A DNA stretch of 64,000 nucleotides. It comes from a plasmid. Where the stretch lies: sequence record NZ_CP090008.1; one strand, 5' to 3'. Shown piece by piece: positions 1-21,164 of the stretch. Below the pieces are notes generated by a model. That model had not been told where the DNA came from, did not search any database, and saw only the letters and a list, made by a program, of their open reading frames with translations. The position numbers and the translations under genes are program-made. Each line of letters opens with the position of its first letter. Within the stretch, counting starts at the first letter, position 1.

Positions 1-14
1 ACGATTACTCTTTG

Positions 15-92
15 ACCCAAAATCGATAAGGTTGTCTATGCCGTATTATTGTAGCACCTTGTTTCAAACAAATACCAGATGAGGTGTTTTTT
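15..92. repeat. Left copy of ~80 bp direct repeat (second copy 34064..34141, ~85% identical); continues as diverged ~200 bp repeat ending in an IS3-type end remnant
   Basis: cccaaaatcgataaggttgtctatgccgtattattgta... matches 34067-34106 nearly base for base; downstream ACTTGACAAATGGT shared at 199 and 34239. Confidence 0.7.
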
Positions 93-169
93 AGCATGCC
101 CTTTTATGGATCAAAAAGTGTTAAAAATAAGACAGTAACCTCAGAATAGCTACTGTCTTATCTCTTTTT

Positions 170-230
170 TTACTTAAAGCCTTGATAGACTTGACAAATG
201 GTAGAAAAGAGTCGTTTTTCTTTGTGAAAC
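170..230 (-). mobile_element. Solo IS3-family end remnant (encodes OrfB C-terminal ...FSTICQVY on minus strand)
   Basis: Matches 3' end of intact IS3 OrfB at 34236-34262 (…FATICQVY) and third copy at 32945-32975. Confidence 0.5.
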
Positions 231-254
231 ATAGGGAACACCTCACAACTCTTC

Positions 255-290
255 TTATCTCTATTCTTATCTCTATTCTTATCTCTATTA
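255..290. repeat. Tandem repeat 3 x 12 bp (TTATCTCTATTC)
   Basis: Direct reading of sequence. Confidence 0.85.
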
Positions 291-542
291 TACGACTTTA
301 CACAAAGAAAAGCCCTTGGAAACTTTTGTTCCAAGGACTTTGTCTTCAATCTGAGGCCTTGATGATCAATGCTTTTTATATTGCTCAAAAGTCATTCAAC
401 TTTTATAAGCAAATAATATACTCCACTTATTGTGAGAGTGTGCATGAATATTTAAAGGATTAGAATGTGACATATGTGGGACTTGTTTTGAAATTAATAA
501 AATATGATAATTAATACAAGATAACTGAAGGAAGAAAAAATA

Positions 543-773
543 ATGAATGGGATAGGTTATATACTTAGGAGGTTACGGAAAGAAAAAGGGATTACACAGA
601 GAGTTATCTATACAAATCTTTGTAGTCGAAAGCAACTTTCTAGGATAGAAAATAATACATCTTTCCCATCAGTATATCTTTTATATCATATTTGCCAAAG
701 ATTAGAAGTGACAATAGATGAAGTTATCAAATTAACATTAGAAGGAGAAAGTAATGGCAATCAGCACAAGTGA
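543..773 (+). CDS. Small XRE-family helix-turn-helix transcriptional regulator (76 aa), first gene of cluster
   Basis: HTH_XRE signature (LRRLRKEKGITQRV...LSRIENN); overlaps start of next gene. Confidence 0.6.
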   Translation: MNGIGYILRRLRKEKGITQRVIYTNLCSRKQLSRIENNTSFPSVYLLYHICQRLEVTIDEVIKLTLEGESNGNQHK

Positions 774-1800
774 ATTAAAGTATGAATTACCGGTCGAATT
801 AGCTGCTCGACAACCTATAGAACTGACATCGAGTAGAAGGGATGGAACTAGATTAATAGTAGGTTTTAAAAACTCTCAAAAAATCATTGATGATGTTTTT
901 ACAAATTTTACTAACTATATAAATTCAGGAGACTTACTTATTTTAAATAATAGTAAAACAATTTCACCAATTTTTTATGCATATTCCGATAAATATGGAG
1001 AGGTGAAATTTCATATTAAGACTAAGACTGATTTAGGATATGTATCATATATCAGAATTAGAGAAGATTTAAAAGATAAAATTATTGGTGAGAACTTTAT
1101 TGTAACTGATGAAATAGAAGTATCTGTAAATAAACGAACTGAAGGCGATGAATTTTTGTGTAGTTTTAATTGTTCTGAAGAGGATTTGTATAACTATTTA
1201 TTAATTAATGGTGAGGCAGTGAAATCAATTTATACAAAGAAAAAATGGTCAATTGATTATTATCAAAATGAAGTTGCAAATAAATTAGGATCTTTTGAAA
1301 ACCCAGCAGCGAGTCGGCACTTTACTAATAAAATGTTAAATATTTTACGTGAAAAAGGGGTAAGAATCGCGTATATTACTTTAAATTGTGCTTCGGTTGA
1401 TACAAAAATTTTTGAGGATATTATAGAGAAACATGTTGTTTTTAAGGAATACTATGAGATCCCCGAAGAAACAGTAAGATTAATTCAAGAAACAAAATTA
1501 AACGGTAATAAGGTGTTTGCGGTTGGAACTACAGTTATTAGGACTTTAGAAAGCTGTAATTATGATAATTTCAGAATTACTTCCCCTTTAAAAAATTATA
1601 CTGATTTATATATTCATCCTGGACATAATTTTAAAGTAACAGATGCTTTAATTACAAATTTTCATGGATCAATGACTAGTAGACTTGCTCTTTCTGCAGC
1701 TGCAATTGGTGTGGATAATATTATGAATTTATACAAACATGCAATCGAAGAAAAATATTTATTTTATGAGTTTGGGGATGCGAATTTATTATTCATGTAG
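754..1800 (+). CDS. QueA-family protein (S-adenosylmethionine:tRNA ribosyltransferase-isomerase homolog), divergent, in non-tRNA-modification context
   Basis: Alignable along full length to QueA: YELPxELIA, GDLLxxNN, GNKVFAVGTTVIRTLES (cf. VGTTSVRSLES), ALITNFH, EEKYxFxxxGDA. Confidence 0.8.
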   Translation: MAISTSELKYELPVELAARQPIELTSSRRDGTRLIVGFKNSQKIIDDVFTNFTNYINSGDLLILNNSKTISPIFYAYSDKYGEVKFHIKTKTDLGYVSYIRIREDLKDKIIGENFIVTDEIEVSVNKRTEGDEFLCSFNCSEEDLYNYLLINGEAVKSIYTKKKWSIDYYQNEVANKLGSFENPAASRHFTNKMLNILREKGVRIAYITLNCASVDTKIFEDIIEKHVVFKEYYEIPEETVRLIQETKLNGNKVFAVGTTVIRTLESCNYDNFRITSPLKNYTDLYIHPGHNFKVTDALITNFHGSMTSRLALSAAAIGVDNIMNLYKHAIEEKYLFYEFGDANLLFM

Positions 1801-1831
1801 TTTAGTAAATAACTAGAAAGGGGGTGATGAT

Positions 1832-1906
1832 ATGAAGAAGTTGACATTGAAAGAACTGGTTGATAAAAATAATGATTTGCTCTCACGTTGCACAATCAAT
1901 AAATAA
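1832..1906 (+). CDS. Unannotated 24-aa peptide MKKLTLKELVDKNNDLLSRCTINK (candidate precursor/substrate peptide)
   Basis: ATG 8 nt after strong SD (GGGGGTGA); sits between QueA-like and PqqD-like genes; followed by hairpin 1925-1951. Confidence 0.5.
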   Translation: MKKLTLKELVDKNNDLLSRCTINK

Positions 1907-1972
1907 TTAACCACGGAAAAATCCAATGAAGAATGATATTATTTCTTCATTGGAGTTTATTTTGGAGGGCTT

Positions 1973-2239
1973 ATGCTTTATAAAGTTAATCGAGACGTAG
2001 AAATAACAGAAGAAAATGGATATCAAGTTATTCATAGATATTCAGATGATTCGTATTTTTCCTTAGAAAATGATACTTTGTTTATTTTATTGAGTTATAA
2101 TGGTTTAAATAAATTGCAAGATATTGCAAAAAGCTTTGCAAAATATAAAGGAATTTCTAATAACAAAGCTTTAGAATACGTAGAACAAATCCAAAAATAT
2201 TTAGTTTCAGAAGGAATAATTGTCATAGATGAGAACTAA
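1973..2239 (+). CDS. PqqD-like small protein (RiPP recognition element-type peptide chaperone), 88 aa
   Basis: Size and pattern typical of PqqD family (…LNKLQDIAKSF…YVEQIQKYLVSEGIIV); SD GGAGGG upstream. Confidence 0.55.
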   Translation: MLYKVNRDVEITEENGYQVIHRYSDDSYFSLENDTLFILLSYNGLNKLQDIAKSFAKYKGISNNKALEYVEQIQKYLVSEGIIVIDEN

Positions 2240-3095
2240 ATCTAAGTTATTTAATAATATAGCAGAAGATAATATAGACTCCCTTTATGTACAATTGTGT
2301 AATTTAATATATAAAAATGGTAAAGTTGTAATTTCGAGAGGCATGGAGGTAAAAGAATTAATTGGGGTTAACTTAATTTTAACTAATCCCAAAAGACGCT
2401 TTTTAGAAAATGCCAACAGAAAATTAAAACTATACTACGCTATTGGAGAATTCATATGGTATATGAGGGGGAGTAATAGTTTAGAGGAAATTCAGTATTA
2501 TGCCCCTAGCATGTCACAGTTTTCTGATGATGGTTCTATTCTTCAAGGAGCTTATGGACCTAAGATTGTAACTCAAATCGATAAATTGATTACACTGCTA
2601 AGACATGACAAGGGGACTCGTAGGGCAGTTTTACCTATTTATTCTGCGAGTGAATTAGGTAAAGATAGTAAAGATATCCCATGCACACTCACATTAGAGT
2701 TTTTGATTCGAGCTAATAAGCTTCATCTCATTGTCAATATGAGATCAAACGACATATTTTTGGGGCTTCCGTATGATATTTTTTCTTTCACAATGATTCA
2801 GGAATACATTGCAAATAAGATAGGTCTAAATTTAGGATATTATTATCATAATATCGGAAGCTTACATGTCTATAAGAAACATTTTGATAGAATAAAAGAA
2901 ATATCAACTATGAATATACATAAAACATCAGAATTCAATAACTCAAATTTAATCTTTAAAAATTTAAGTGATTTGTTAAACATTGAAAAATCAATTAGAA
3001 ACGGAAGTCCATACAATATGAGCAAGGAATTACTTAATAATTCGGATTTCAATAGAATAAAGATTGAACTAGAGAAATATAAGGATAGTAGGTGA
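2229..3095 (+). CDS. Thymidylate synthase (ThyA)/dNMP hydroxymethylase-family enzyme with catalytic Cys intact
   Basis: IPCTLTLEF…NMRSNDIFLGLPYDIFSFTMIQEYIA…SLHVY aligns to ThyA PCH…[20 protein letters not shown]…HLY. Confidence 0.8.
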   Translation: MRTKSKLFNNIAEDNIDSLYVQLCNLIYKNGKVVISRGMEVKELIGVNLILTNPKRRFLENANRKLKLYYAIGEFIWYMRGSNSLEEIQYYAPSMSQFSDDGSILQGAYGPKIVTQIDKLITLLRHDKGTRRAVLPIYSASELGKDSKDIPCTLTLEFLIRANKLHLIVNMRSNDIFLGLPYDIFSFTMIQEYIANKIGLNLGYYYHNIGSLHVYKKHFDRIKEISTMNIHKTSEFNNSNLIFKNLSDLLNIEKSIRNGSPYNMSKELLNNSDFNRIKIELEKYKDSR

Positions 3096-3098
3096 GAA

Positions 3099-3683
3099 AT
3101 GTCTATCGGAAAACTAATCTATATATGTGGAATTGATGGTTCTGGGAAAACAACATTAGCCAAGAATCTTTCTAATCATTTTGGTGATAAATCAATATTT
3201 TTGCCATTAAATAATTCAAAAAGATTCATTAATGAAATTGATAGTTTCTGTAAAGAGTATAATACAGACAGGTGGAGTATATTTTCAGAATATTTTAGGG
3301 GAAATATTTGGGCGTTAGAGCTAGTTTATTTTTGTGAAAATATTTTAAAACCCGCTCTAAAAAAGTACGAATATGTATTCATCGATAGATATTATATATG
3401 TAATGCTATATATTCTAATTTATTAGTCACTAATAAGTTGGTTAATAGACTGCATGAATTACTGATTAAACCAGACATGGTTTTTTATATCAATATTAAT
3501 CCAGAGATCGCTTTTGAAAGAATTTTAAAAAGGAATGAGCAAAAAACGCCGAAAGAAAGTTTGGACAATTTAAAATTAGCTTCTGATTTATATTCAAGAT
3601 ATCTTGAAGATAAAAGTTATTATGAATTAGACGGAGAGAAGTCAGAGAATCAAATTTTAAAGTCTGTATTACAAATTATTTAG
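3099..3683 (+). CDS. Thymidylate/dNMP kinase-like P-loop kinase
   Basis: Walker A GIDGSGKTT; DRY-type motif FIDRYYICNAIYS as in Tmk. Confidence 0.7.
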   Translation: MSIGKLIYICGIDGSGKTTLAKNLSNHFGDKSIFLPLNNSKRFINEIDSFCKEYNTDRWSIFSEYFRGNIWALELVYFCENILKPALKKYEYVFIDRYYICNAIYSNLLVTNKLVNRLHELLIKPDMVFYININPEIAFERILKRNEQKTPKESLDNLKLASDLYSRYLEDKSYYELDGEKSENQILKSVLQII

Positions 3684-3699
3684 AATTTAGGATTAAGAT

Positions 3700-4689
3700 A
3701 TGAAATTTGAAACAGTACTAGATTTTTATATATACTATTTGGAAATCCTTCTGAAAAGGGAAAAAAATCATACTAAAGTTGTCCCATTTTCGGAGATAGC
3801 TAATAAAGTCGAGGTTTTCAACAATAGTATTGAGATTGTTCAAGGAACTCATAGTAATATGCTATTTAGTAGATCTGAATTTAATTATAATGTAGTGCAT
3901 ATGCTATATTCTTTGAGTGGGAGAACAGATTCATATATATTAAAAAAATATAAAAGTTCATATTGGCGATATTCGAATGAGGGATTTTATGTCAATACAA
4001 TTGGGGAGCGGTTATATACTTTATATGGTAATCAAATTAAACGTTGTGTAAATTTTTTAAAAGAAAATATTTATACGTCAGATGCCGTTTGTTTTATGAA
4101 ATCTTTTGAAAATGAAAATATTGAATGTACTCTAAATCTTCATTTTTATTATAGAGATAATCGATTAAATTTGGAGTTATCATATAAAGGTTCTAGTTTA
4201 TTAGAGTATACTAACTCCGATCTATTTATTTATTCTTCTTTACTTTCATTAATGAGCCATTGGTTAGATGTGGAACCTGGAAGTTTATTTTTAAAATGTC
4301 ACTCGATTTTTATTTCAGAAAATGATCTAGAAAGAGCTAAGAAACTATTAGAAATTGGTAAATCGTTGAGAAATATTGGTATTTCAATGAATCATAGGTT
4401 TTCATCCAGTATTGAAACTTATCGTTCAGAATTTTCTGAAGCTATCAATAGAATAATTGCTTGGGATACTGTTGATATTACTCAGAGAGTTTCTGAGGAA
4501 TTAGAGTATATAAAAAAGTATTTTACTCCATATATTCAAGACTTGTTACTTATTCTTTTAGCGGATAGATTTCATCAAACTGATAGTGATTATAAAATAG
4601 TATTGAGTCAGCTCTCAGATAGGTCAATTGGGAAATTTAAGGAAACAATTGATAAAATACAATTTAATAAATTATTAGAGGTAATTTAA
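3700..4689 (+). CDS. Divergent ThyA-fold paralog (possible hydroxymethylase/methyltransferase or non-catalytic partner)
   Basis: IECTLNLHFYYRDNRLNLELSYKGSSLLEYTNSDLFIYSSLLSL resembles ThyA core (PCH…QRSxDxxLGxPFNIASY) but lacks the R-S-x-D phosphate motif. Confidence 0.4.
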   Translation: MKFETVLDFYIYYLEILLKREKNHTKVVPFSEIANKVEVFNNSIEIVQGTHSNMLFSRSEFNYNVVHMLYSLSGRTDSYILKKYKSSYWRYSNEGFYVNTIGERLYTLYGNQIKRCVNFLKENIYTSDAVCFMKSFENENIECTLNLHFYYRDNRLNLELSYKGSSLLEYTNSDLFIYSSLLSLMSHWLDVEPGSLFLKCHSIFISENDLERAKKLLEIGKSLRNIGISMNHRFSSSIETYRSEFSEAINRIIAWDTVDITQRVSEELEYIKKYFTPYIQDLLLILLADRFHQTDSDYKIVLSQLSDRSIGKFKETIDKIQFNKLLEVI

Positions 4690-4691
4690 AT

Positions 4692-4952
4692 TTGATAATT
4701 AAAAAGAGTCTTGCTGCTATACAACGTTCAGTATCAGGAAATGAATTTTTGTTAAATTTACTTACTGATAGGACTTTTCTCCTTAATGAAGTTTCTCTCT
4801 ATATTTGGAGTAATCTTGGAGAATGTAGTACTGAGGAAATAGCTGCAAATTTATCTAAAATGTATAATGAAAAAACCGAGATAATTCAAAATGATGTAGA
4901 TGAAGTTATTAATATTTTACAGGAAGAAGGGTTAATTGAAATTCTGAATTAA
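4692..4952 (+). CDS. Second PqqD-like small protein (RRE-type), 86 aa
   Basis: FLLNEVSLYIWSNLGECSTEEIAANL…DVDEVINILQEEGLIE is a textbook PqqD-family pattern. Confidence 0.65.
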   Translation: MIIKKSLAAIQRSVSGNEFLLNLLTDRTFLLNEVSLYIWSNLGECSTEEIAANLSKMYNEKTEIIQNDVDEVINILQEEGLIEILN

Positions 4953-4970
4953 GAGAGGTGGAGGATATTA

Positions 4971-5657
4971 ATGGCTGAAATTATTTATAGTATGATTGCT
5001 AATGAGATTTCAGAGCAATTGTCAGAGGATAATATTGTAATTTGGAAATCTGAGATGGATGGACTGGGGACCTCATTATCTGATATCGATGCATATTGTA
5101 TCTGCAAGGAAGAAAAAGTAATAAAAAGCTTTGTATATGAAGGGACACCGGTTGATATTGAATATGTGACTTCGGAAAGGCTAAAAGCTAAAATTAATAA
5201 AATTTATCAATACACTAATCATGGTGATATTTATAAAGGATTAGATGAAGATTTGAAATTATTTTACAGATTACAAAGAGGAGAGAAATCAGCTAAATTT
5301 TCATTGATTGGAGTTGAAGTTCCCACACTTGAGGAAATTTCTAAGATTGCAGCACAATATTATTATGAATTATTTTTAGGTCTGTATGAAGATGCTTATA
5401 AAATGTACCATGGGAAAAATAAATTAGATTCTTTTGTCCTTTCCCTAGAGACATTACAAATGTCTATTGCAACTTATTTAGCTAGGGTAGGGAAACCACA
5501 ATTTAAGAAAAAATGGCTATTTAAATATTTTAATATAGTAGCTAACAATTCCCTATATAAAGATTTAATTACACAATTAGAATCAACACAGGAATATGAT
5601 TTAATGGAATTCACAGAGAGTATACTAGTCAATTCAAAAAAGCTTCTAGAAATTTAG
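4971..5657 (+). CDS. Pol-beta superfamily nucleotidyltransferase (LinB/ANT-like)
   Basis: hG[GS]…DhDh motif: MDGLGTSLSDIDAYCI; helical C-terminal domain. Confidence 0.65.
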   Translation: MAEIIYSMIANEISEQLSEDNIVIWKSEMDGLGTSLSDIDAYCICKEEKVIKSFVYEGTPVDIEYVTSERLKAKINKIYQYTNHGDIYKGLDEDLKLFYRLQRGEKSAKFSLIGVEVPTLEEISKIAAQYYYELFLGLYEDAYKMYHGKNKLDSFVLSLETLQMSIATYLARVGKPQFKKKWLFKYFNIVANNSLYKDLITQLESTQEYDLMEFTESILVNSKKLLEI

Positions 5658-5679
5658 TATATTGAAAGGAGGTGAGATT

Positions 5680-5742
5680 ATGGTCTATAAAAAACCTATT
5701 GTTGAAGATATTAAATTAAGTGCCTCTGCATTACTTGTATAA
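5680..5742 (+). CDS. Unannotated 20-aa peptide MVYKKPIVEDIKLSASALLV (second candidate substrate/precursor peptide)
   Basis: Perfect SD AGGAGGTGA 7 nt upstream of ATG; followed by 12-bp perfect inverted repeat 5764-5775/5820-5831 plus T-run. Confidence 0.45.
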   Translation: MVYKKPIVEDIKLSASALLV

Positions 5743-5763
5743 TATCTTAGTATAAGTCGGAGA

Positions 5764-5831
5764 GTTGAACAGAATAATTATGTAGTTAATATGACTAACA
5801 GGAAGTATTACTACAAAAAATTCTGTTCAAC
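5764..5831 (+). terminator. Stem-loop (12-bp perfect arms GTTGAACAGAAT/ATTCTGTTCAAC) followed by T-rich tract; likely leaky terminator/attenuator after peptide gene
   Basis: Direct reading. Confidence 0.5.
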
Positions 5832-5857
5832 TTTCCATTTTTTATAGAGTAATAAAA

Positions 5858-6664
5858 ATGAGCAAAATTAGGTATATCATAATAAAGATACTATTACATC
5901 AATTTTACGGAATCAAAAATATAAAATTAATAAATTGTGTTAAAAATATGAATAAAGTTTATATTTTTGAAGATATCAACAAAAAGGTCAAAATGGTTTT
6001 AAAAGTAGAATCTGAAAGAAGAATTAATTCGATCAAGTACCAACATATATTTTCCAATTATGGGATATCGCCAAAAATAATTAAAACTAGAACAGGAAGA
6101 CAGTATATAAAGATTTATAGATTGGTAATATTTGTACAAGAGTATGTAACATCTAGTAAAAGAAAGGTCACTTCAACAGAGATTGTGGGATTTTTAAAAT
6201 ATTTTTACGGAAAAATGGATGAAATAAGAGAATATTTACCCGAAGTTTTGACTACTTATCCATTATATAAGCAAGGCGCATTAAGTAAATGGTTTTATGT
6301 AGTCCATGGTGATTTACGTCCACAAAATATTATCATTACCAGGGATAGTTTTAGCGTGATTGATTTTGAGTATTTAAGTCTAGGAATTCGAGAAACTGAA
6401 ATTCTCAAGTTAATTATAATAATTTGTAAATATCAAAGTAATTTGATTGAATCGCTATATTCTAAATTCTTAGAATCAGACGTAATAGAAATGCATATAG
6501 AGGAGGCGATAAGGGTTCTTTTGTATGATCTTCTTAAATCAAATTTTCCTGAAAAGGTCAAGAATAATATTCCAAAGAATTATTTTTTAGAAATAACTTC
6601 TGAAAGGGAGGCATTAATAAACTTTTGCCATACATATTTAAAAAGAAAGGAATCCCAAAAATGA
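5858..6664 (+). CDS. APH/choline-kinase-fold kinase (aminoglycoside phosphotransferase-like); true start may be internal (ATG 5948)
   Basis: Catalytic loop HGDLRPQNIII and IDFEY (DFE/DFG-like) motifs. Confidence 0.65.
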   Translation: MSKIRYIIIKILLHQFYGIKNIKLINCVKNMNKVYIFEDINKKVKMVLKVESERRINSIKYQHIFSNYGISPKIIKTRTGRQYIKIYRLVIFVQEYVTSSKRKVTSTEIVGFLKYFYGKMDEIREYLPEVLTTYPLYKQGALSKWFYVVHGDLRPQNIIITRDSFSVIDFEYLSLGIRETEILKLIIIICKYQSNLIESLYSKFLESDVIEMHIEEAIRVLLYDLLKSNFPEKVKNNIPKNYFLEITSEREALINFCHTYLKRKESQK

Positions 6665-7710
6665 TTTCAACTGAGATTGAGAAAAAATATCTACTTACAA
6701 AAGAAGAATTTCTATCCTTTAGTAGAGATTTTTTTAAAAGTGCAAAAATTCAAGAACAAACTAATTATTATTTTGATAGTTTAGATTTTTCACTATTAAA
6801 GAGAGGAATGACTCTTAGAATTCGAGAAAAATATGATAAATATATTTTAACATTAAAGAAAAAGAAATCAGTCAAAATAATTGTAGAATCGGAAGAAATT
6901 AATTTCGTAATTACACCGCAAGACTTTCAAGAGGCAATCTTAACTGGAGAATTTCCCCAAAATGTAAAGAAAGAACTAGACTCATTAATTCCCGAAAAGA
7001 AAATTTTTTATCTAGGTTTTCTAAAAACTAAAAGATATGTAATCGAAAAAAATTCTTTGATATATTGTTTAGATAAAAATAATTATTTTGGAAAGGAGGA
7101 TTTTGAATTAGAAATTGAAGGAACAGAGAAAGGACTAAAAGAAATTGAAATTGATATTTCCAAGAGCAAATCTAATAATGTTGGAAAATATGCTAGATTT
7201 ATTGATGAATTATTGAAAGGAAACGGTAATTATCTGATTAAAACTCAAGTGTCTGCAATTATTCTTAATAAAAGTAGCGATAAAGTTTGTCTTATTAAGA
7301 AGGATATTCCAACCTCAAGTATACATAATATGTGGCTTCCACCCGGTGGACATATCGATTTTGGAGAAAATTTAATAGATGCTGTCAAAAGAGAGGTCTA
7401 TGAAGAGACAGGGTTAGAAGTTACGGTTTCAAAATTATCTAGCATTGTATCGTTTCATCAAAAAAAGGCAGAGCAAGCTATTTGTTTCTTTTATGTCGCA
7501 GAATCCCAAAATATTAATGAAATAAATGTCACTGAGCCAGGCATTGAATGCAGGTGGTTTAATTTAAAAGATATACTAAGTGGAGATGATATAAATATGA
7601 CATCCTATCATAAGCTTATAATATCCGACTTGCAAGATAACAGGATTTTATATTTGAATTTAAAAAAATCTGATAATCAATATAATATTGAAAATATAGT
7701 TCATATTTAA
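6661..7710 (+). CDS. CYTH (triphosphate tunnel) - Nudix hydrolase fusion protein
   Basis: N-term EIEKKYLL (ExExK CYTH signature); C-term Nudix box GGHIDFGENLIDAVKREVYEETGLEV. Confidence 0.7.
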   Translation: MISTEIEKKYLLTKEEFLSFSRDFFKSAKIQEQTNYYFDSLDFSLLKRGMTLRIREKYDKYILTLKKKKSVKIIVESEEINFVITPQDFQEAILTGEFPQNVKKELDSLIPEKKIFYLGFLKTKRYVIEKNSLIYCLDKNNYFGKEDFELEIEGTEKGLKEIEIDISKSKSNNVGKYARFIDELLKGNGNYLIKTQVSAIILNKSSDKVCLIKKDIPTSSIHNMWLPPGGHIDFGENLIDAVKREVYEETGLEVTVSKLSSIVSFHQKKAEQAICFFYVAESQNINEINVTEPGIECRWFNLKDILSGDDINMTSYHKLIISDLQDNRILYLNLKKSDNQYNIENIVHI

Positions 7711-7894
7711 AAGATTAAAACTAGTTATATATAAAATCTAGGTATAACTGTTCCACTGAATTCCATAGATATAATTAGCTTCTTAAATGTAGGGCTATTT
7801 TATAGCTTGAATATACAATATAAGTGCACAATAAAAACTCATAAGATTTTCTAGTAAAATAGAATTGAACGAACTAGTTACGAAAGGAAATCTT

Positions 7895-8881
7895 ATGAGC
7901 TACCATCATTTTACTATAGATGAACGTGAAAGCATTCTCGTTTACCGTACGCATGACCTAAATTTTTCTCAAATTGCTAAATCACTTCATCGTCATTAGT
8001 CTAGCAGTAGTGGTGAGTGGCAACGACATCTTAAAGAAGGAAGCTATTCTCCAAGTCATGCATAGGAATCTTATCATATGGCTAAATCACACTGTGGGCG
8101 GAAACGTATGCTTGAAATAGATCACAATTTAAGCAATACCGTCAAACATCTATTTCTCGATTACCAATGGTCTCCCGAAGAAATAGAAGGTCGGTTGCGA
8201 TTAGAGTATGGAAAAACTGTTATTAGTTATCAAACAATCTATAGAGCCATTTACAGAGGGCATTTTGATGATAACTCACTATCTCATGGTGCTCGTGGTG
8301 TCATTCGAAAGCTCCGTCATCGTGGTAAAACACGTCATACAAAAGGTTATGTCGAAAATAGAGGGAAAATCTCTATATCTCATACAATTCACGAAAGACT
8401 AGAAGATGCTAATAACCGAACTAGAATAGGAGATTGGGAAGCCGATACTGTTGCAGGTAAAACTAGAAAAGCTTGTTTAGTGACTCTAACTGACCGTTAT
8501 TCTCGTTTTCTAAAAATCCAGAAGGTAGCTGTCAAGAAAAGCAAGTTGGTAATAGAAGCTATGGTAAAAATGTTAGAGCCCTTGACGAAGCATACAATAA
8601 CTCCTGATAGAGGGAAAGAATTCACGTATCATCAGAAATTGAGCGATCAATTGAACATTGAAGTCTATTTTCCTGACCCTCATGCTCCATGGCAACGAGG
8701 AACCAATGAGAACACGAAAGGATTACTTTGAGAGTATTTTCCAAAGGGTAGTGATCTAACATTGGTTGATGATCAGACTATTCAGCTGTGGGAGAACAAA
8801 CTTAATAATAGGCCACGAAAATGTCTTAACTGGAAAACACCTTATGAAGTATTCTATGGGGAAAGTATGCACTTAATTTGA
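7895..8881 (+). pseudogene. IS30-family transposase, inactivated (two in-frame stops near N-terminus, frameshift near C-terminus)
   Basis: MSYHHFTIDERESILVYRTHDLNFSQIAKSLHRH* …; DDE core …GDWEADTV…; C-terminal continues in another frame to 8881. Confidence 0.75.
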
Positions 8882-8953
8882 CAATTCAAGAGTAAAATAA
8901 ATTTAGAAGACATATTTTTATTTGATTTAAGTTATTTGATTTAAGGAGGCGAA

Positions 8954-9745
8954 ATGCTACTAGCTGTAATAAGAAGAAACTGGCAGATGTATAAAAGATA
9001 TTTTCCAGTAACATTGTTTTTTAATAGGGGTTTGGATGCTGGTTTTACTCTATTAGGTTTGTGGTTAATAGCGAATTTTTTATTCGCAAATAACATTAAA
9101 GTTGGTAATGCTATAGAGTACTCAGATTACTTCAGTTATGCTGCAGTAGGATTGGTTTATTATAATGCATCAATTGCTATTCTGATGAATGTAGGGAGAG
9201 CATTAATAACAGAAGTTAGAGAAGGCACTCTTGAAAGTACATTAGTATCTCCTTTTAACATTGTCTATTATTACTTAGGAATCTTTTTAGAGCAGTTTGT
9301 AAGGACCTTTTTGGAATTTCTATTTTCTTATATAATTGCTATTTTGCTCGGTGCAGATTTACAACAAATTACATTACTGATTTTATTGCTTGGCTTCTTA
9401 TATGTTTCGATTTGCTCTTTTTCGATGGGGGTATTCCTATCAAATATAATGTTGTGGTTTAGGGATACATTCATTAGTCAAAATACAATTTTTCTGATAA
9501 TCTTCTTGGTCTCAGGCATTACCTTTCCAATAGAATTATTGCCAAAATTTTTAAGGGTGATTAGTAATTTTATACCGTTAACATATTCTATTAAGGCAAT
9601 AAGAACCTTATATTTGGAAACCCAGACGAGTATGATCAATCTTAGCTTTATACAAGGTTTACTACTTTCAATATTATACTTCTTGATAGGGATTCTGGTA
9701 TATAATAAGGTTGAGAAAAAAATTGTAAGTGATGTTTCATATTAA
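8954..9745 (+). CDS. ABC-2 type transporter permease
   Basis: 6-TM hydrophobic profile, 263 aa, translationally coupled to ATPase. Confidence 0.6.
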   Translation: MLLAVIRRNWQMYKRYFPVTLFFNRGLDAGFTLLGLWLIANFLFANNIKVGNAIEYSDYFSYAAVGLVYYNASIAILMNVGRALITEVREGTLESTLVSPFNIVYYYLGIFLEQFVRTFLEFLFSYIIAILLGADLQQITLLILLLGFLYVSICSFSMGVFLSNIMLWFRDTFISQNTIFLIIFLVSGITFPIELLPKFLRVISNFIPLTYSIKAIRTLYLETQTSMINLSFIQGLLLSILYFLIGILVYNKVEKKIVSDVSY

Positions 9746-10744
9746 GTGAAGGAGAGAAATAAAATGTATGAAGTATTCAATATTTCAAAAGATTATGTAA
9801 CAAAAAAGAGAATAGGATTGTTTAAACATAAAAAAGAAGTTAAAAAAGCTATACAAGATGTAAATTTATCAGTCCCTAGAGGTAAAATTATTGGTGTTTT
9901 AGGAGAAAATGGTGCAGGGAAAACAACTTTAATAAAGATGATGACAACACTTCTATCAAGTGATACTGGAAAAATTTTGATAGATGGAGTTGACATTAAT
10001 CAAAATGTAAAAAATACTCGAAAAAGGATCAACATCATTAGTGGAGGAGAAAAAAATCTCTATTGGAGATTGACTGCAGTTGAAAATTTACTCTATTTTG
10101 CTTCTCTGTACGGTCTTCCAAAGAAAGAGGCATTACCTAAGATAGATAATTTATTGAATGAATTAGGGCTTTGGGAAAGTAAGGATACTCCTGTAGAAAA
10201 ATTTTCAAAGGGAATGAAGCAACGCTTACAAATTGCTAAAGGACTAATCAATGATCCAGAATATTTATTTCTTGATGAACCTACACTAGGTCTAGATGTC
10301 AGTATTGCTTACGAGTTGAGAAAAAAATTAAAAGAGATAGCGGCTAAGCGGAATACAGGAATTTTGTTAACAACTCACTACATGGCTGAAGCAGATGAAT
10401 TATGTGATTATATTTATTTTTTAAAACATGGTAAAGTAATTGTGTCAGGTACCAAAACACAGGTTTTTGAACAATTACAGATGACACCAGAGCTTCATGT
10501 CATCCTTTCAGATAGGGATGATGAAAATTCTTCAAAGCTGGCTCAAGTTAGTCGTTTATTTCCATGTATAATTTTGGAAAAATTTGGTAGTAGTATATTG
10601 TTGAAATTCTCTCTTTCAGAATATAATGTGCAGGATATAATAAAAAGCCTATATAATAATCAAATTGAAATTAAGGAAATAAGATATAATGAGCCTACTC
10701 TTGAAAATGTTATTCTAAATTTAGGAGGAAAGAGCTTAAAATGA
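9746..10744 (+). CDS. ABC transporter ATP-binding protein
   Basis: Walker A GENGAGKTT, signature FSKGMKQRL, Walker B LFLDEPT. Confidence 0.85.
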   Translation: MKERNKMYEVFNISKDYVTKKRIGLFKHKKEVKKAIQDVNLSVPRGKIIGVLGENGAGKTTLIKMMTTLLSSDTGKILIDGVDINQNVKNTRKRINIISGGEKNLYWRLTAVENLLYFASLYGLPKKEALPKIDNLLNELGLWESKDTPVEKFSKGMKQRLQIAKGLINDPEYLFLDEPTLGLDVSIAYELRKKLKEIAAKRNTGILLTTHYMAEADELCDYIYFLKHGKVIVSGTKTQVFEQLQMTPELHVILSDRDDENSSKLAQVSRLFPCIILEKFGSSILLKFSLSEYNVQDIIKSLYNNQIEIKEIRYNEPTLENVILNLGGKSLK

Positions 10745-11535
10745 ATTCGATAATAGTTAGTACTTTTAAGAGTGAATTTAGAAGAACATTTTTAAATGAC
10801 AGTATTAATAAATTTTATTTTTTTTCAATGATACTTTGGCCAATTATTTCTCTAATTCAAATTTTTTACAATATGCAAGCCTTTCCAATTACGGATATAC
10901 AAATAGCATCTCTAAGATATGAAGACCAATTAATTTATTTTATATTTATTGGTTATTGTGTTTACATCATTTTTTCAAATGCTGTTCAGAGTGCATGGAG
11001 GCTTGGTGGAGAACGATATCAAGGAACTCTTAGTCAAATTTTTATTGCTCCAATTAAAAAAAATCTATGGCTTTATGCACGTACCTTATCACTTATTTTA
11101 AGTAATTCATGGTTTTTTATCACTATTTTTATTATTGGAAATTTTGTCTATTCTGATGCTTATGAATATATTCTTGCGTCCACTTTTATTTTAGTTGTTG
11201 CATCCTGGATTTGGGCAAGTTTCTTAGGTAGTATTTGTATCAGTTTGAGAGATGCAACGGTAGTTTATGTATTATTGGAGAGCTCTCAAAATACTTTTAG
11301 TGGTGCTAAAGTTCCATTATCAAAATCACCTCGATTAATAAAAGTTATAGGGAGTTTATTTCCCATTAGCTACACAATTATTTATCTAAGAGATATACTT
11401 CTTTATAAAGAGATTATAAGTATAAGTGCTATTTGGTGCTTATGCATAAATATCTTTGTTATTTTATTAACGAAGATAGTGTTAGAAGTTGGAGAAAGAC
11501 ACATGAAAAAAGTGGGCAGTTTTGATTTATTTTGA
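10741..11535 (+). CDS. ABC-2 type transporter permease (second)
   Basis: Multi-TM, overlaps ATPase stop (ATGA). Confidence 0.6.
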   Translation: MNSIIVSTFKSEFRRTFLNDSINKFYFFSMILWPIISLIQIFYNMQAFPITDIQIASLRYEDQLIYFIFIGYCVYIIFSNAVQSAWRLGGERYQGTLSQIFIAPIKKNLWLYARTLSLILSNSWFFITIFIIGNFVYSDAYEYILASTFILVVASWIWASFLGSICISLRDATVVYVLLESSQNTFSGAKVPLSKSPRLIKVIGSLFPISYTIIYLRDILLYKEIISISAIWCLCINIFVILLTKIVLEVGERHMKKVGSFDLF

Positions 11536-11766
11536 ATCGTGCTTAACTAGCTATTTAAATTTAGAGTAATTATTTCATTTAATTTATATTTTATCAATAA
11601 TAAAGGGGTAGTACTAAGGAAAAATTATATAGAGAGTTAGCTGAATCCTCTTCGAAACTCAGTGAAAAATAGTTCAATTATTGTTTCGTCAGATCAACAC
11701 GATTTAATCATTTGATACAATGCTCATATCTTTCAATACTCAATTGTTTTTACAACTTTTGGATGT

Positions 11767-11976
11767 TTAATTTATACAGTCTACGATTTCTACCATATTT
11801 TCAACCTTGCAATCAAGTGCAATACATATTTTCAATAAAATATCAGTAGTGATATTTTCCCCTTTTCCTAATTTTGCTAGAGAAGAGGAGCTAATCCCTA
11901 CTTCTTGCCGGAGCTTTGTTTTGATTCAACCTTTATCAATGAGAAGTTTCCATAATTTATTATAACTAAACTTCAT
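11767..11976 (-). pseudogene. XRE-family HTH regulator with internal stop (MKFSYNKLWKLLIDKG*IKTKLRQEVGISSSSLAKLGKGENITTDILLKICIALDC…)
   Basis: Manual translation of minus strand. Confidence 0.6.
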
Positions 11977-12593
11977 CTGAGTTTTTTCCTTTGTTCCATG
12001 AAATACCGTAGAGTTCATTTCCGTTACTAGAGAGTCTCAGTACAGTATTTTCTGACAAGAGATGATTAGCTTCTGGATAATACGAGATAGCTTTATCAAA
12101 GGATAAAAAGACTTGTTTGTTCAATGATTTTGATTGGTCATATAGCTTCAACAGGGCTTCGGTTGCTTGGTAACTAATATTACTTAAGAGTAATGAATCA
12201 TGGGCAAGTGCTGGAAGATTAGTTAGATAGAGTATTGCTAAATCGTACAATATCATTCCTTTGAACTTAGTTCCTGTACCGTCGTCGTCAGGGGTATAGA
12301 AGGAATAGCTATTATAGGTTCTGAGGATAATTTGAGGAGCTTTGCGAATATCTGGATAAAGGAAATCATTGAATTCTCGCATTTTAGCATTGATTTTTCC
12401 TTCTAGCTCTATTAGAATGTGATCCAACGCTACTGTATTTTCAAAACTAATATATTCTGTTGGGTTTTCAATCCCATAAACAGATTGCAGTAGGTCTAGC
12501 CAAAAAGACTGGCTCTCTTGTCTTTCTCTACCACGGTTTTCCCAACGCTTAATAAAAGCCTTGGCTTGTTTTTTTCTGTTCTCTAGTGTTCAT
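11966..12593 (-). pseudogene. N-terminal fragment (frameshifted, truncated ~200 aa) of MmeI/PglX-like type IIG RM / BREX-type DNA methyltransferase
   Basis: …AFIKRWENRGRERQESQSFWLDLLQSVYGI…FENTVALDHILIELEGKI is the conserved N-terminus (PD-ExK region) of this family; stop after 16 codons then frame change; no MTase domain follows. Confidence 0.55.
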
Positions 12594-18623: not shown

Positions 18624-21164
18624 ATGTTTAAAGACTCAAATAACACGAAAGGACATGGCTCTATTCGTAAGAATAAGGTCTATGGAGCAGTAGGTGTACT
18701 TGCACTCGGTGCTGCAGCAATCGTTGGAGGAACTTCTCAAGCATCCGCAGATGAAGTAACTGAAGCTCCTGTAAATTCAGAACCAGTTGCGACCTCACAA
18801 GCAAACGCAGACAGCCTTATGTCACAAGCTACAGCTGTTGCGACTTCAGATGTCTCTACTCCAACAACCATAGCGACTGCAACAAACACTACTGATTCAC
18901 AACCTACTGAAACAGTAGCAGAAGTAGCTACTACACAACCAGTAAGTACTAATGATAATAATGCTTACGCTGAAAAGGCTAATACATCTACTGAAGCTGA
19001 AAAGGTAACTATCGACAACACAGCTGTCACAGATGCAGTTGCTACTGCAAAAGACAGTGGGGTTAAAGTAACACAAGATGCTACGCAAGACAAAGGGACA
19101 CCAACCACAAGTGAAGACCTCGCAACAAAGCAAGCTGAAATCAAGGCCGACCAAAATGAACAAGTAGCTACAATCAAACAAGCTACCCAGGACGCATCTG
19201 GACGCCAATCAGCCTATGATGCAGCTGACAAAGCTCACGACACACTTGAAACTCAAGTAGACAAAGCGGTTAAAGATAGTAATGGACTTATTAAAGCTGA
19301 AGCTACTGAAATCTCAAGTGGGGATGGTAAAAATGTAGGTGATTACAACACCTATACTGAACAGGTTAACAAGCAGATTGCTTCGAACAAAGAAACCATC
19401 GACAAATTTAACAAAGATTATGCTGCTATGAAGGATAATGCTAACGTTAATGTTGATGGACGTGTGACAACACAAAATGTTGATCAATTGACTTACGGGA
19501 ACTCTGTTCAAAATGGTAGTGTTAATCCAGACGGCACCTTCTCATTCACGCACGATATGAATGACTCAGCTAATGATAGCTTGGGTGTTTTGGGTACAGG
19601 TACCCTTAATGGTAAGGTTAATTTCACGTCTGCTGCTAACGGAGACGGTTCGACAACCGTAACACTTAATAGTCTCGATTTGTGGAACTATGCTTATACA
19701 AGTAACCGTCTGAATACTGGTGTTAACCAAAATCTTAACTACCACGTTTACACAGACGGAGAAGAAATCTACTCAGTAAACCATGATGGTAACTCAAGCT
19801 TTGCGGAAGATATCAATCGTAGTATTGCACTTAACAAGTCCTATGTCTTGAAACCAGGCGAAACTACTGGTATTATCCCAATTCTTAACATCGATGATAA
19901 TTGGATTATCAATACTCATGGTCAGTTAAGTCTCGATTTCACTAATCCAAACACTGTACCATCAGCTACAGTTAAAAAGGTTAATGAACCTGTTAAACCA
20001 GAAATTCCATCAGCAAGTTATCATGACTACAGTATGAATTATCAACCAACTGTAACTAAGACTGTCCTCAACAGCGACGGTGAAAATGTTAATGGTAAGA
20101 TGATTCCTAAAAATGATGAACATACCTATGTTTTGAATAACGGAAACATCTTTGCCAATGCAAAGGTTGGCGATACTGTGACAACTCGTGATCCACTTGA
20201 ATTCGGAGAAGTTCCAAATATCGAAGCCAACAAGACTGAAAATGAGGCTAAAGGTTGGAACGTTGATTATGATGAGGCTTCTAAGACTTACACATTTACA
20301 GCCAAATATGATGGGAAAACTCTTGAAGCACCTACAATCAAGTTCGTAGCAACGGACGATAACGGTTTCTACGATAATACTTATAAAGCTGGTCGTAACG
20401 GTTACGAAACCTTCTCTGATACTGTCACTAACAAGACGCCAACAGCTCCTAAGCCACATAAGTCTGTTACAGACTCAAAAGGAAATGACATCGATGGCCA
20501 AACGACATCTGATGATAAAGTCAACTTCCATTTGACAACTGACTATAGTCCATATAAAGACATGGCCGCTTCTAAGAAAGCTCTCGAATTTGCACTTCTC
20601 GATGACGTGCAAGATGGTGCCTTCACTGTAGATGAAGATGCTATTACTATTCGCGATAGCAATAACAAAGATGTCAAAGAACTCTTTGATATGTATCACG
20701 TACTTTCGGATGAAGGACGTACTGATGCCATCAACAAGATCCTAGAAAAATCTGGTCTTAATCCAACTGGTGAGTTCTATCTCTGGGTAGCCAAAAATCC
20801 AGTTGATTATTACCAAAACTACATTCTTAAGAACAATAATGTAACAGTTAATCTCCCTGCTACATTGAAAGTCCCTGCAGGTACTACTGTAGAAAATGAT
20901 TTCTATCAGATTGATTTTGGTAATGCCTATAAATCAAATCTTGTTTCATTCGATACACCACCAGCAGCACCAGTAGGAGAGTCTGGCGGACCTACTTCTA
21001 CCCCAGTAACTCCAGTAGAAGAAGTGCCTGTCCAACAACAAGCTATTAAGGTTCTTCCTAATACTGGTGAAAAATCAACTTCAGCGTTTGCTGCAGTAGG
21101 AGCAGTTATTCTAGCTACTACACTAGGTATGCTTGGTTTCTCAAAACGTAGTAAAGAATGCTAA
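18624..21164 (+). CDS. Large LPXTG-anchored adhesin with YSIRK-like signal peptide
   Basis: GSIRKNKVYGAVGV signal; C-terminal LPNTG sorting signal. Confidence 0.8.
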   Translation: MFKDSNNTKGHGSIRKNKVYGAVGVLALGAAAIVGGTSQASADEVTEAPVNSEPVATSQANADSLMSQATAVATSDVSTPTTIATATNTTDSQPTETVAEVATTQPVSTNDNNAYAEKANTSTEAEKVTIDNTAVTDAVATAKDSGVKVTQDATQDKGTPTTSEDLATKQAEIKADQNEQVATIKQATQDASGRQSAYDAADKAHDTLETQVDKAVKDSNGLIKAEATEISSGDGKNVGDYNTYTEQVNKQIASNKETIDKFNKDYAAMKDNANVNVDGRVTTQNVDQLTYGNSVQNGSVNPDGTFSFTHDMNDSANDSLGVLGTGTLNGKVNFTSAANGDGSTTVTLNSLDLWNYAYTSNRLNTGVNQNLNYHVYTDGEEIYSVNHDGNSSFAEDINRSIALNKSYVLKPGETTGIIPILNIDDNWIINTHGQLSLDFTNPNTVPSATVKKVNEPVKPEIPSASYHDYSMNYQPTVTKTVLNSDGENVNGKMIPKNDEHTYVLNNGNIFANAKVGDTVTTRDPLEFGEVPNIEANKTENEAKGWNVDYDEASKTYTFTAKYDGKTLEAPTIKFVATDDNGFYDNTYKAGRNGYETFSDTVTNKTPTAPKPHKSVTDSKGNDIDGQTTSDDKVNFHLTTDYSPYKDMAASKKALEFALLDDVQDGAFTVDEDAITIRDSNNKDVKELFDMYHVLSDEGRTDAINKILEKSGLNPTGEFYLWVAKNPVDYYQNYILKNNNVTVNLPATLKVPAGTTVENDFYQIDFGNAYKSNLVSFDTPPAAPVGESGGPTSTPVTPVEEVPVQQQAIKVLPNTGEKSTSAFAAVGAVILATTLGMLGFSKRSKEC

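Follow-up and report, generated by a model that had tools for sequence, protein, structure and literature searches.

What would a thymidylate synthase (ThyA)-family enzyme, a kinase resembling thymidylate kinase (Tmk), and a second, divergent protein of the ThyA fold be doing side by side in a streptococcus? The question is raised by a 64-kb stretch of sequence record NZ_CP090008.1 (hereafter the window), whose host is Streptococcus salivarius, as window proteins are identical to QEM315xx and others. A preliminary description of this DNA had placed the three genes in a row, and all three open reading frames (ORFs) are indeed present at those positions; we refer to them as Thy1, TmkL, and Thy2 (Table 1). 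Together they constitute the core of a low-GC island spanning 11 kb (window positions 543-11535), which also encodes a candidate peptide, peptide-recognition proteins, and an exporter. In our preferred reading, to which we assign a probability of roughly 60%, the island is a horizontally mobile peptide-nucleotide pathway akin to those for peptides that are made on ribosomes and modified post-translationally (RiPPs), dependent upon RiPP recognition elements (RREs), with Thy1 serving as a modifier of cytosine C5. The product of the cluster and the order of its reactions are inferred.

Thy1 is closest to an enzyme that acts on a cytosine nucleotide. Its best match in the PDB is MilA, a cytidine monophosphate (CMP) 5-hydroxymethylase (3.9e-37), compared with 1e-19 for the best true ThyA, and it lies below every ThyA equivalog cut-off, with the best NCBIfam ThyA model yielding 81.7 bits vs 327. 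The catalytic cysteine is found in the ThyA-type P-C-H/T context (I-P-C152-T, equivalent to C146 of Escherichia coli), and E74, R131, D149, C152, S173, D183, H213, and Y215 are invariant or near-invariant in 24 family members, with R172 and D175 likewise conserved in the family. In MilA, the catalytic residues are Cys155, Glu68, and His216/Tyr218 (PMC5175136). Most of the motifs previously listed for Thy1 are in place ('IPC152TL', 'R172-S-N-D175', and 'FLGLP'), as are H213/Y215, whereas the supposed 'NIASY' really reads 'Y-D183-IFSF'. This Asp183, near-invariant in the Thy1 family, occupies the base-recognition position of ThyA Asn177. The same position, Asp186 in MilA, is Asp in enzymes that use cytosine and Asn in those that use uracil (PMC5175136), and the Asn-versus-Asp comparison that had been proposed as a check consequently comes out as Asp, i.e. 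cytosine.

Two further positions address the sugar and the group transferred. Ribose users carry Ala176 and Lys133' (MilA numbering) where deoxyribose users carry Ser and Arg, and an A176S/K133R double mutant of MilA switches from CMP to deoxycytidine monophosphate (dCMP) (PMC5175136). Thy1 has Ser173 and Arg131, both of which are invariant in 25 aligned sequences, in contrast to the Ala176/Lys133 of MilA and BcmA. Leu143 of ThyA keeps water out of the active site, and Asp or Glu is found there in enzymes installing groups other than methyl (PMC13326640, 2026); at this water gate, Thy1 has Asp149. Asp183, Ser173, Arg131, and Asp149 therefore predict a dCMP-type, non-methylating C5 modifier, and the most likely prediction from these residues is a hydroxymethylase that makes 5-hydroxymethyl-dCMP rather than thymidine monophosphate (dTMP). 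The C5 transfer onto a pyrimidine nucleotide that had been expected is consistent with such a C5 modifier, resembling MilA and T4 gp42 and linked to a Tmk-like kinase. The parallels previously drawn with phage hypermodification and with CMP hydroxymethylases hold for this MilA/gp42-like C5 modification, but not for a CMP substrate, as the sugar-contacting residues are of the deoxy type (Ser173/Arg131) and not the CMP type (Ala/Lys).

The adjoining TmkL is, as had been described, a P-loop kinase with the Tmk 'DRY' motif: it contains both GIDGSGKTT and 'FIDRYY', its Pfam match is to the thymidylate kinase family, and it matches 2plr in the PDB (1.9e-12). Its score against TIGR00041 is 81.3 bits vs a cut-off of 83.25. 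In the clusters examined, TmkL either adjoins Thy1 or is separated from it by a single Nudix gene, apart from locus L033 with the two genes ~5 kb apart, and ThyA-like domains are even fused to Tmk in the proteins P0273 and P0314.

The evidence for a peptide begins with a short ORF located between a QueA paralog and the 88-aa protein RRE1, which is preceded by the Shine-Dalgarno sequence GAAAGGGGGTGA and ends in ...CTINK, its Cys being residue 20. Short ORFs occupy the equivalent position in 10 other loci, where they adjoin the QueA paralog or Thy2, and in all 11 loci the candidate precursor, 24-51 aa in length, combines a GAAAGGAGGTGA-like Shine-Dalgarno sequence with a Cys near the C-terminus. 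The cores (...LLSRCTINK; ...LLACCNATK; ...VFSSCGSK; ...AFSKCGEMVS; ...IFSNCSKLGL; ...LFHNCSQMPI; ...EMSDCNKILCV; ...GKVGC) share this Cys as their sole invariant residue, usually with a hydrophobic residue at position -3. Two precursors, from Brevibacillus and Geobacillus, instead consist of three tandem F-x-K-C-R repeats. These triple-repeat ORFs of 49-51 aa are unannotated (12059-12214 of L039, plasmid pGeo12a, and 7547-7696 of L012, Brevibacillus panacihumi W25), the pGeo12a peptide being absent from the RefSeq annotation. Relative to the S. mitis precursor (L006), that of S. salivarius has 6 synonymous and 8 nonsynonymous codon differences, while only two codons differ from those of a second streptococcal contig (L001), both synonymously. 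Just 3' of the ORF, the transcript could form a stable hairpin (dG -19.8 kcal/mol, z -3.9; 0/200 shuffles equally stable), and inverted repeats are visible by eye in the sequence 3' of the L002 and L012 peptides as well.

Proteins that could recognize such a peptide are encoded on either side of the trio. RRE2 is recognized as a PqqD-family protein by Pfam, while RRE1 has no Pfam hit itself. A profile of 6 RRE1 orthologs nevertheless aligns with that of RRE2 (hhalign 96.7%) and also matches two RREs of lasso peptides, TbiB1 (5v1u, 2.5e-4) and TfuB1, as well as PqqD; the cluster therefore encodes two RREs. Furthermore, the RRE1 orthologs of L030 and L037 carry Pfam PqqD. In all non-streptococcal clusters, RRE1 lies directly 5' of Thy2; in L030, PqqD, Thy2, and the peptide are contiguous, and L037 has the same order with the peptide ORF cut by the contig end. 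An RRE2-like gene is likewise found directly 5' of a nucleotidyltransferase (NTase)-like gene in eight lineages (window/L001, L006, L002, L003/4, L035, L036, L039, L041). The NTase-like protein, termed NTL, is invariant at W25, S27, D38-I-D40-Y42, and D62-x-E64 in 6 orthologs, and its pattern W-x-S-x9-S-D-I-D-x-Y + D-x-E is typical of minimal nucleotidyltransferases.

The cluster, whose gene set is conserved across Bacillota, recurs in 10 independent lineages, in which the content is kept and the gene order shuffled. Among these are the second streptococcal contig (L001, 94% identity), S. mitis and a Gemella metagenome-assembled genome (L006-8 and L017, 67%), Lactobacillus iners (L003-5, 41%), B. 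panacihumi (L012), the 58.8-kb conjugative plasmid pGeo12a of Geobacillus thermodenitrificans T12 (L039), and metagenomic or draft contigs (L002, L030/31, L035, L036, L037, L041). The conserved set includes the QueA paralog, Cys-peptide, RRE1, Thy2, an APH-family kinase, Thy1, Tmk-like kinase, RRE2, the NTase-like protein, CYTH/Nudix, and the ABC exporter. Outside of the streptococci, the order is QueA, peptide, RRE1, Thy2, APH, Thy1, Tmk, RRE2, NTase-like, CPBP protease, and CYTH/Nudix. The CPBP protein, a CAAX-protease-type membrane protease carried by several versions of the cluster, may remove the few residues beyond the Cys or serve as immunity. With its host strain in culture and its conjugative plasmid annotated in full, the pGeo12a copy offers a convenient experimental system.

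The second ThyA-fold protein, Thy2, is the proposed peptide-directed enzyme. The Pfam Thymidylat_synt score of Thy2 falls exactly at the gathering threshold, and it matches the PHROG thymidylate synthase family with an E value of 1.4e-10. An AlphaFold model from the single sequence had a mean confidence (pLDDT) of 40, whereas a model from an 86-sequence alignment reached 92.4; the latter best matches MilA over its full length (TM 0.73), above all true thymidylate synthases, with a superposition that includes the C-terminal helical extension. Sequence signal and model agree upon a ThyA/MilA fold, the model not being independent of the sequence signal, as its alignment was composed of 86 ThyA-family relatives from an exhaustive search. 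Thy2 retains Cys143 and also Asp174 at the ThyA Asn177 position, while K163-G-S-S166 replaces R-S-x-D and S127-D128 replaces the Arg-Arg pair. The early impression of a degenerate second ThyA fold without the RS-D motif was therefore accurate. Across non-streptococcal orthologs at 23-28% identity, Cys143 is invariant, and Asp174, Gln112, and Gly102 are nearly so. Most family members keep 'Y-R-A-x-D', which is MilA-like in its Ala, where the streptococcal copies have 'Y-K-G-S'. The R21 equivalent is missing in all Thy2 orthologs, and in most of them so are the Arg-Arg pair and, on the folate side, the F-L-G-x-P loop.

Thy2 proteins are rare and keep particular company. A word-indexed homolog search yielded 3 clusters only, compared with 178 hits from the exhaustive search, of which 12 representatives were at E<1e-10 among 1.84 billion proteins; in a scan of a genome collection, Thy2 alone as query found nothing, and it was a Thy1-family alignment that succeeded there. 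Eight Thy2 orthologs were nonetheless reached independently of Thy1, seven by the Thy2 search (L002, L003, L030, L035, L036, L037, L041) and the eighth (L039) as the neighbor of a QueA paralog retrieved from the plasmid. QueA-like and PqqD-like genes were found alongside in seven of these eight lineages. Thy2 co-travels with QueA, RRE1, and the peptide, and not with Thy1 alone. Conversely, Thy1 also occurs without Thy2 in many loci, and the set of APH, Thy1, and Tmk, with or without MazG/Nudix, is found without Thy2 in other exporter-containing loci, which argues that Thy1 is self-sufficient. Given the occurrence of this Thy2-less module, Thy1, TmkL, APH, and Nudix constitute a reusable nucleotide module, and this split therefore leaves Thy2, the QueA paralog, RRE1, and the peptide as a second, peptide-directed module.

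Based upon the Cys-containing precursor, two RREs, QueA paralog, NTase-like protein, APH kinase, CYTH-Nudix protein, and exporter, the product of the cluster would be a peptide-nucleotide rather than a free nucleoside antibiotic or hypermodified DNA. The preliminary description had invoked the logic of the latter two, which loses its appeal once the trio is seen as part of a larger peptide/RRE/exporter cluster instead of a self-contained unit. A free nucleoside or nucleobase antimetabolite in the style of mildiomycin or bacimethrin, with the short ORF and PqqD-like proteins being incidental or a disposable scaffold, does have some merit. MilA is the closest solved relative of Thy1. Certain Thy1-APH-Tmk modules are accompanied by glycosyltransferases, AMP-binding/carrier proteins, and ABC exporters with no evident peptide. 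Proteins resembling the uracil-DNA glycosylase (UDG) superfamily, encoded after TmkL in L030, L037, and L039 (E 0.014-0.034), hint at glycosidic cleavage, and triple-repeat precursors would suit a scaffold that is cut to small units. We still regard this explanation as unlikely, because Thy2 co-occurs in 10 lineages with a pair of separate RREs and with a conserved Cys-peptide whose Shine-Dalgarno sequence is strong, and RREs are not known beyond peptide-directed pathways. Thy1 shares with MilA and BcmA the catalytic Cys, Glu, and His/Tyr, the base-site Asp, an acidic side chain where ThyA has L143, and a secondary-metabolite setting. Unlike the MilA and BcmA systems, the cluster pairs Ser173/Arg131 (vs Ala176/Lys133) with a precursor and RREs, and no MilB/BcmB-type N-glycosidase was detected in the window using Pfam and NCBIfam.

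Alternatively, Thy2 might have no catalytic role and instead, as a pseudo-enzyme or as one subunit of a heterodimer, change the specificity or regulation of Thy1, much like the specificity or regulatory subunit initially considered. ThyA enzymes form obligate dimers, in which each subunit shares Arg residues with the other across their interface, and as the streptococcal Thy2 is without the RR pair, R166, and D169, Thy1 could donate R131/R132. Such a role is distinctly unlikely given the invariant Cys143 and the near invariance of Asp174, Gln112, and Gly102 at 23-28% identity, the 'Y-R-A-x-D' retained by most non-streptococcal orthologs, and the many loci in which Thy1 occurs, and presumably works, without Thy2. 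The tracking of Thy2 with QueA, RRE1, and peptide rather than Thy1 alone, with QueA-like and PqqD-like neighbors in 7/8 lineages, speaks equally against a mere subunit.

Returning to the peptide-nucleotide pathway, a plausible sequence of reactions can be outlined. Firstly, Nudix (MazG in relatives) would supply dCMP from deoxycytidine triphosphate (dCTP), which Thy1 would convert to 5-hydroxymethyl-dCMP using methylene-tetrahydrofolate. Secondly, TmkL and the APH kinase would phosphorylate 5-hydroxymethyl-dCMP at its 5'-phosphate, with one of the two possibly acting on the 5-CH2OH group. The latter event would parallel the kinase step of phage 5-hydroxymethyldeoxyuridine (5-hmdU) DNA and would yield a leaving group; the phage enzyme 5-HMUDK phosphorylates the 5-CH2OH, enabling nucleophilic substitution (PMC8989533). 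Thirdly, Thy2, docked upon the leader via RRE1, might activate the pyrimidine through attack of Cys143 at C6 and couple its C5-methylene to the thiol of the conserved Cys of the precursor. The degraded 5'-phosphate site and altered folate loop of Thy2 fit an enzyme that no longer performs folate-dependent one-carbon transfer on a mononucleotide. The exocyclic methylene intermediate of ThyA can be trapped by thiols, and C5 DNA methyltransferases can join thiols to 5-hydroxymethylcytosine. Tailoring of the conjugate would then fall to the NTase-like protein, together with RRE2, and to the QueA paralog, which would contribute a cyclopentane unit derived from S-adenosylmethionine (SAM), and the ABC-2 transporter would export the product. 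The CYTH-Nudix protein may additionally clean up or detoxify nucleotide intermediates in the producer. The most specific part of this scheme, that Thy2 is the first peptide-acting enzyme of the ThyA fold, using Cys143 to activate a 5-(phospho)hydroxymethyl-cytosine nucleotide and creating an RRE-guided thioether between C5-methylene and Cys to which the QueA paralog adds a cyclopentane unit, is a tentative proposal that we hold with low confidence.

A number of points weigh against the peptide-nucleotide reading or its details. All reactions after that of Thy1 are deduced from context. Some ThyA homologs with the residue pattern of Thy1 are flavin-dependent 5-hydroxylases, such as RB69 gp48 (PMC13326640), and a flavin-dependent 5-hydroxylation of this type is a possible alternative for either Thy1 or Thy2. 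The predicted preference of Thy1 for deoxyribose over ribose follows a rule drawn from a pair of enzymes, MilA and BcmA, together with those of T4 and E. coli. Streptococcal Thy2 is the most degenerate of its family, with His67, Lys163, and Ser166 replacing E58, R166, and D169, respectively, from which its catalysis could be weakened. The streptococcal gene order has RRE1 abutting Thy1 and not Thy2, and one Thy2 locus (L040), on a 9.5-kb, transposon-flanked contig, has no nearby QueA or PqqD. The nucleotidyltransferase fold of NTL is suggested by its motif together with weak Polbeta and NTP_transf_2 matches, which were the only Pfam matches among six orthologs, and a PDB profile search with the NTL family gave nothing meaningful. 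Lastly, the precursor residue at Cys-2 is usually Ser, else Ala, Asn, or His, and there is no second universal acceptor residue for the NTase-like protein. A Ser-O-nucleotidyl/Cys-S bridge over 'S-x-C' had been considered as a general model and was dropped, since several precursors have one of these three other residues at Cys-2.

A third explanation would have the cluster operate a T4-like 5-hydroxymethyl-dCTP pathway that modifies host or plasmid DNA for anti-restriction or defense. The combination of Nudix/MazG, a dCMP-hydroxymethylase-like protein, and a nucleoside-monophosphate kinase mirrors the gp56 dCTPase, gp42, and gp1 of T4, the D179, S169, and R123' of gp42 being equivalent to D183, S173, and R131 of Thy1, and the cluster is found on mobile DNA. 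Such a pathway is nevertheless highly improbable: the cluster is bacterial (chromosome or plasmid) and includes no DNA polymerase, glucosyltransferase, DNA-targeting gene, or other DNA-incorporation machinery, the peptide, RREs, and ABC exporter would be left unexplained, and PADLOC analysis of ten island proteins returned no system-specific model, the matches being to generic models for HTH proteins, P-loop kinases/ATPases, protein kinases, and Nudix proteins. That Thy1 and TmkL might be the housekeeping thyA and tmk, as the RefSeq names 'thymidylate synthase' and 'dTMP kinase/AAA ATPase' would have it, is vanishingly unlikely given Asp183 in place of the Asn needed for deoxyuridine monophosphate, 81.7 bits against a 327-bit equivalog cut-off, the low GC content and sparse distribution of the island, and an ortholog on a conjugative plasmid, all of which agree with the non-housekeeping role anticipated for these genes. 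The 64-kb window contains no further ThyA or Tmk copy.

The proposed pathway has partial precedents. In phage thymidine hypermodification, mediated by 5-HMUDK and an amino acid:DNA transferase, C5 is similarly hydroxymethylated and the CH2OH phosphorylated and displaced; the differences here would be a peptide Cys as the nucleophile, a mononucleotide as the substrate, and a transferase of the ThyA fold rather than the glycosylase fold. Microcin C likewise combines a ribosomal peptide with a nucleotide, an exporter, and possible self-protection enzymes. Unlike microcin C, the cluster is without MccB (ThiF/E1-like) and a heptapeptide with a C-terminal Asn, its conserved site is a Cys side chain, and Pfam and NCBIfam gave no ThiF-family match among its proteins. 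The stand-alone PqqD-like RREs match the discrete B1-type RREs of lasso peptides (TbiB1 and TfuB1), and an RRE accompanied by a kinase and by an NTase-like protein for tailoring is reminiscent of paeninodin/pseudomycoidin-type clusters, whereas the cyclase and leader protease (C/B2) of lasso systems are missing and the precursor is without lasso features. The QueA paralog is homologous over its full length to QueA, the SAM ribosyltransferase-isomerase of tRNA preQ1-34 (~35-37% identity), and keeps its C-terminal motifs. It differs from QueA in its location beside a peptide and RRE in a mobile cluster, its scores below the NCBIfam equivalog cut-offs (225.5 vs 324 bits; 215.4 vs 267.45), and its membership in a small separate clade with 38-45% identity. 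Among PDB entries, it matches the QueA of T. maritima best (1vky, 3e-51).

The cluster is apparently an undescribed RRE-dependent peptide pathway with an unprecedented enzyme set. Full-text literature searches (ThyA, QueA, PqqD/RRE, RiPP, hydroxymethylcytosine, MilA residues) found no paper describing it; a RiPP paper (PMC13381572) and a Brevibacillus paper (PMC9867215) proved to be unrelated. In public annotation, its genes appear as 'thymidylate synthase', 'queA', 'AAA family ATPase', and 'hypothetical protein'. The thioether chemistry of Thy2, if proven, would be categorically new, and human commensal streptococci and lactobacilli would then be the source of a new class of nucleobase-linked RiPPs. 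If our reading is true, the ThyA and QueA folds, which have so far been tied to nucleotide and tRNA metabolism, would enter peptide natural-product biosynthesis, peptides and nucleobases would be linked by a new chemistry, and widely mis-annotated 'thymidylate synthase', 'queA', and 'hypothetical' genes would gain a biochemical role. Given that the cluster is mobile and that its hosts include commensals abundant in the human mouth, gut, and vagina (S. salivarius, S. mitis, Gemella, L. iners), the product could be a bacteriocin-like or signaling molecule of relevance to the microbiome. The wider occurrence of the Thy1-APH-Tmk module in several other, unexplored Bacillota clusters suggests a hidden family of 5-substituted-cytosine natural products.

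Table 1. Features of the S. salivarius island, with positions in the window
Feature	Position	Strand	Basis or remark
XRE-type HTH regulator, first island gene	543..773	+	Pfam HTH_19 7.8e-9, HTH_3 1.1e-7
QueA paralog (SAM ribosyltransferase-isomerase fold)	754..1800	+	Pfam Queuosine_synth 1.4e-73
Candidate precursor peptide MKKLTLKELVDKNNDLLSRCTINK	1832..1906	+	24-codon ORF, strong Shine-Dalgarno sequence upstream
Stable hairpin then U-rich tract (possible attenuator)	1922..1954	+	just 3' of precursor ORF
RRE1, PqqD-like peptide-recognition protein, 88 aa	1973..2239	+	profile comparison; no Pfam hit itself
Thy1, MilA/gp42-like cytosine-nucleotide C5-hydroxymethylase (predicted substrate dCMP)	2229..3095	+	Pfam Thymidylat_synt E 1.1e-29
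TmkL, Tmk-like nucleoside-monophosphate kinase	3099..3683	+	Pfam Thymidylate_kin E 2.4e-22
Thy2, divergent MilA-fold paralog, degenerate phosphate site; proposed peptide-directed enzyme	3700..4689	+	Pfam Thymidylat_synt E 2e-5
RRE2, PqqD-family peptide-recognition protein	4692..4952	+	Pfam PqqD 2.4e-11; NCBIfam lasso_PqqD 5e-5
NTL, 228-aa protein, minimal nucleotidyltransferase motif	4971..5657	+	no Pfam hit in window copy
APH-family kinase	5858..6664	+	Pfam APH 1.3e-5; motifs HGDLRPQN, IDFE
CYTH-Nudix fusion	6661..7710 (ATG 6661; longer TTG start 6625 possible)	+	Pfam CYTH 3.1e-21, NUDIX 1.9e-15
IS30-family element, transposase ORF broken	7797..8901	+	95-96% DNA identity to best 2/4 Streptococcus plasmids
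ABC-2 type exporter: permease, ATPase, second permease	8954..11535	+	Pfam ABC2_membrane 2.7e-15, ABC_tran 1.7e-32, ABC2_membrane_3 2.3e-4

Among the remaining island genes, the XRE regulator is kept at the equivalent place in L001, L002, and L006, and the exporter also closes the cluster in L001, L002, L006, L012, and L039. The APH kinase accompanies Thy1 and TmkL also in loci without Thy2. The CYTH-Nudix protein, which contains the ExExK motif as 'EIEKK' together with a complete Nudix box, has 77% identity to its L001 ortholog over the full length. An IS30 element separates the Nudix and ABC genes, where the otherwise collinear L001 has a 172-bp gap, and this insertion may uncouple the exporter from the operon; its longest ORF is 217 aa (8078-8731) vs the 328-aa intact transposase on Streptococcus plasmids. 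In a megablast search of plasmids with the island as query, this element was the sole match. The S. mitis and pGeo12a clusters are free of the insertion.

The island is also set apart by composition and abundance. Its GC content is 0.27-0.30 across positions 1-8000 vs 0.33-0.41 for most of the remaining window, and 90% clusters of its proteins hold 37-54 member sequences vs 2707-4484 for neighboring chromosomal genes. The left border is shared with L001, homology beginning at window position 356. At the right edge lies a 153-aa DUF2326 fragment (11966-12427, - strand), and as a 552-aa DUF2326 gene occupies the equivalent place in L001, the window copy is what is left of a decayed gene. Rfam detected neither a riboswitch nor any other RNA family over 1-12500, a tRNA gene search found none, and promoter and terminator consensus scans scored no better than shuffled sequence. 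Pfam matches are lacking for several ORFs in the 12.7-22 kb region. Downstream of the island are ordinary S. salivarius accessory or chromosomal genes at 18624-21164, 28174-29589, and 54741-56756, encoding an SspB-related LPXTG isopeptide adhesin, a Y-family (UmuC-like) DNA polymerase, and an FtsX-like ABC permease.

Several observations concern the relatives of the cluster. L030 (1357-18469) and L037 form a more elaborate branch with a single PqqD, directly 5' of Thy2, and its extra genes encode an HFCD flavoprotein (Cys-decarboxylase family), dCMP/cytidine deaminase, ATP-grasp protein, carrier protein, acyl-CoA dehydrogenase, Orn/DAP decarboxylase, and NTP_transf_5 protein. The L030 peptide ends in the Cys itself (...GKVGC), in the presence of the Cys-decarboxylase-family flavoprotein. 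Non-streptococcal versions encode a protein of ~220 aa after the Tmk-like kinase (L039 16506-17186, L030 2839-3498, L037 6183-6869), for which there is no equivalent gene in the window. Each of these three orthologs has the weak UDG-superfamily match mentioned above and one has a 'GINP' motif; the protein may cleave or exchange a glycosidic bond. Bacillota loci L032, L033, L034, and L009-L016 encode a MilA-like enzyme plus APH with no Thy2 or QueA. Among Thy1-type loci without Thy2, the APH kinase is always present, a Tmk-like kinase, MazG/Nudix protein, and exporter are often present, and some carry glycosyltransferases, AMP-binding and carrier proteins, a radical-SAM enzyme, and ABC exporters, which suggests further uncharacterized cytosine-derived products. 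In L. iners (L003/L004, 13275-13902 and 17174-20840), the ABC genes that follow the cluster are reduced to fragments of 100-119 aa, and the exporter there may therefore be decayed. A gene for type II Cas9 is found ~3 kb away from the L. iners cluster, which also adjoins a Fic-domain gene.

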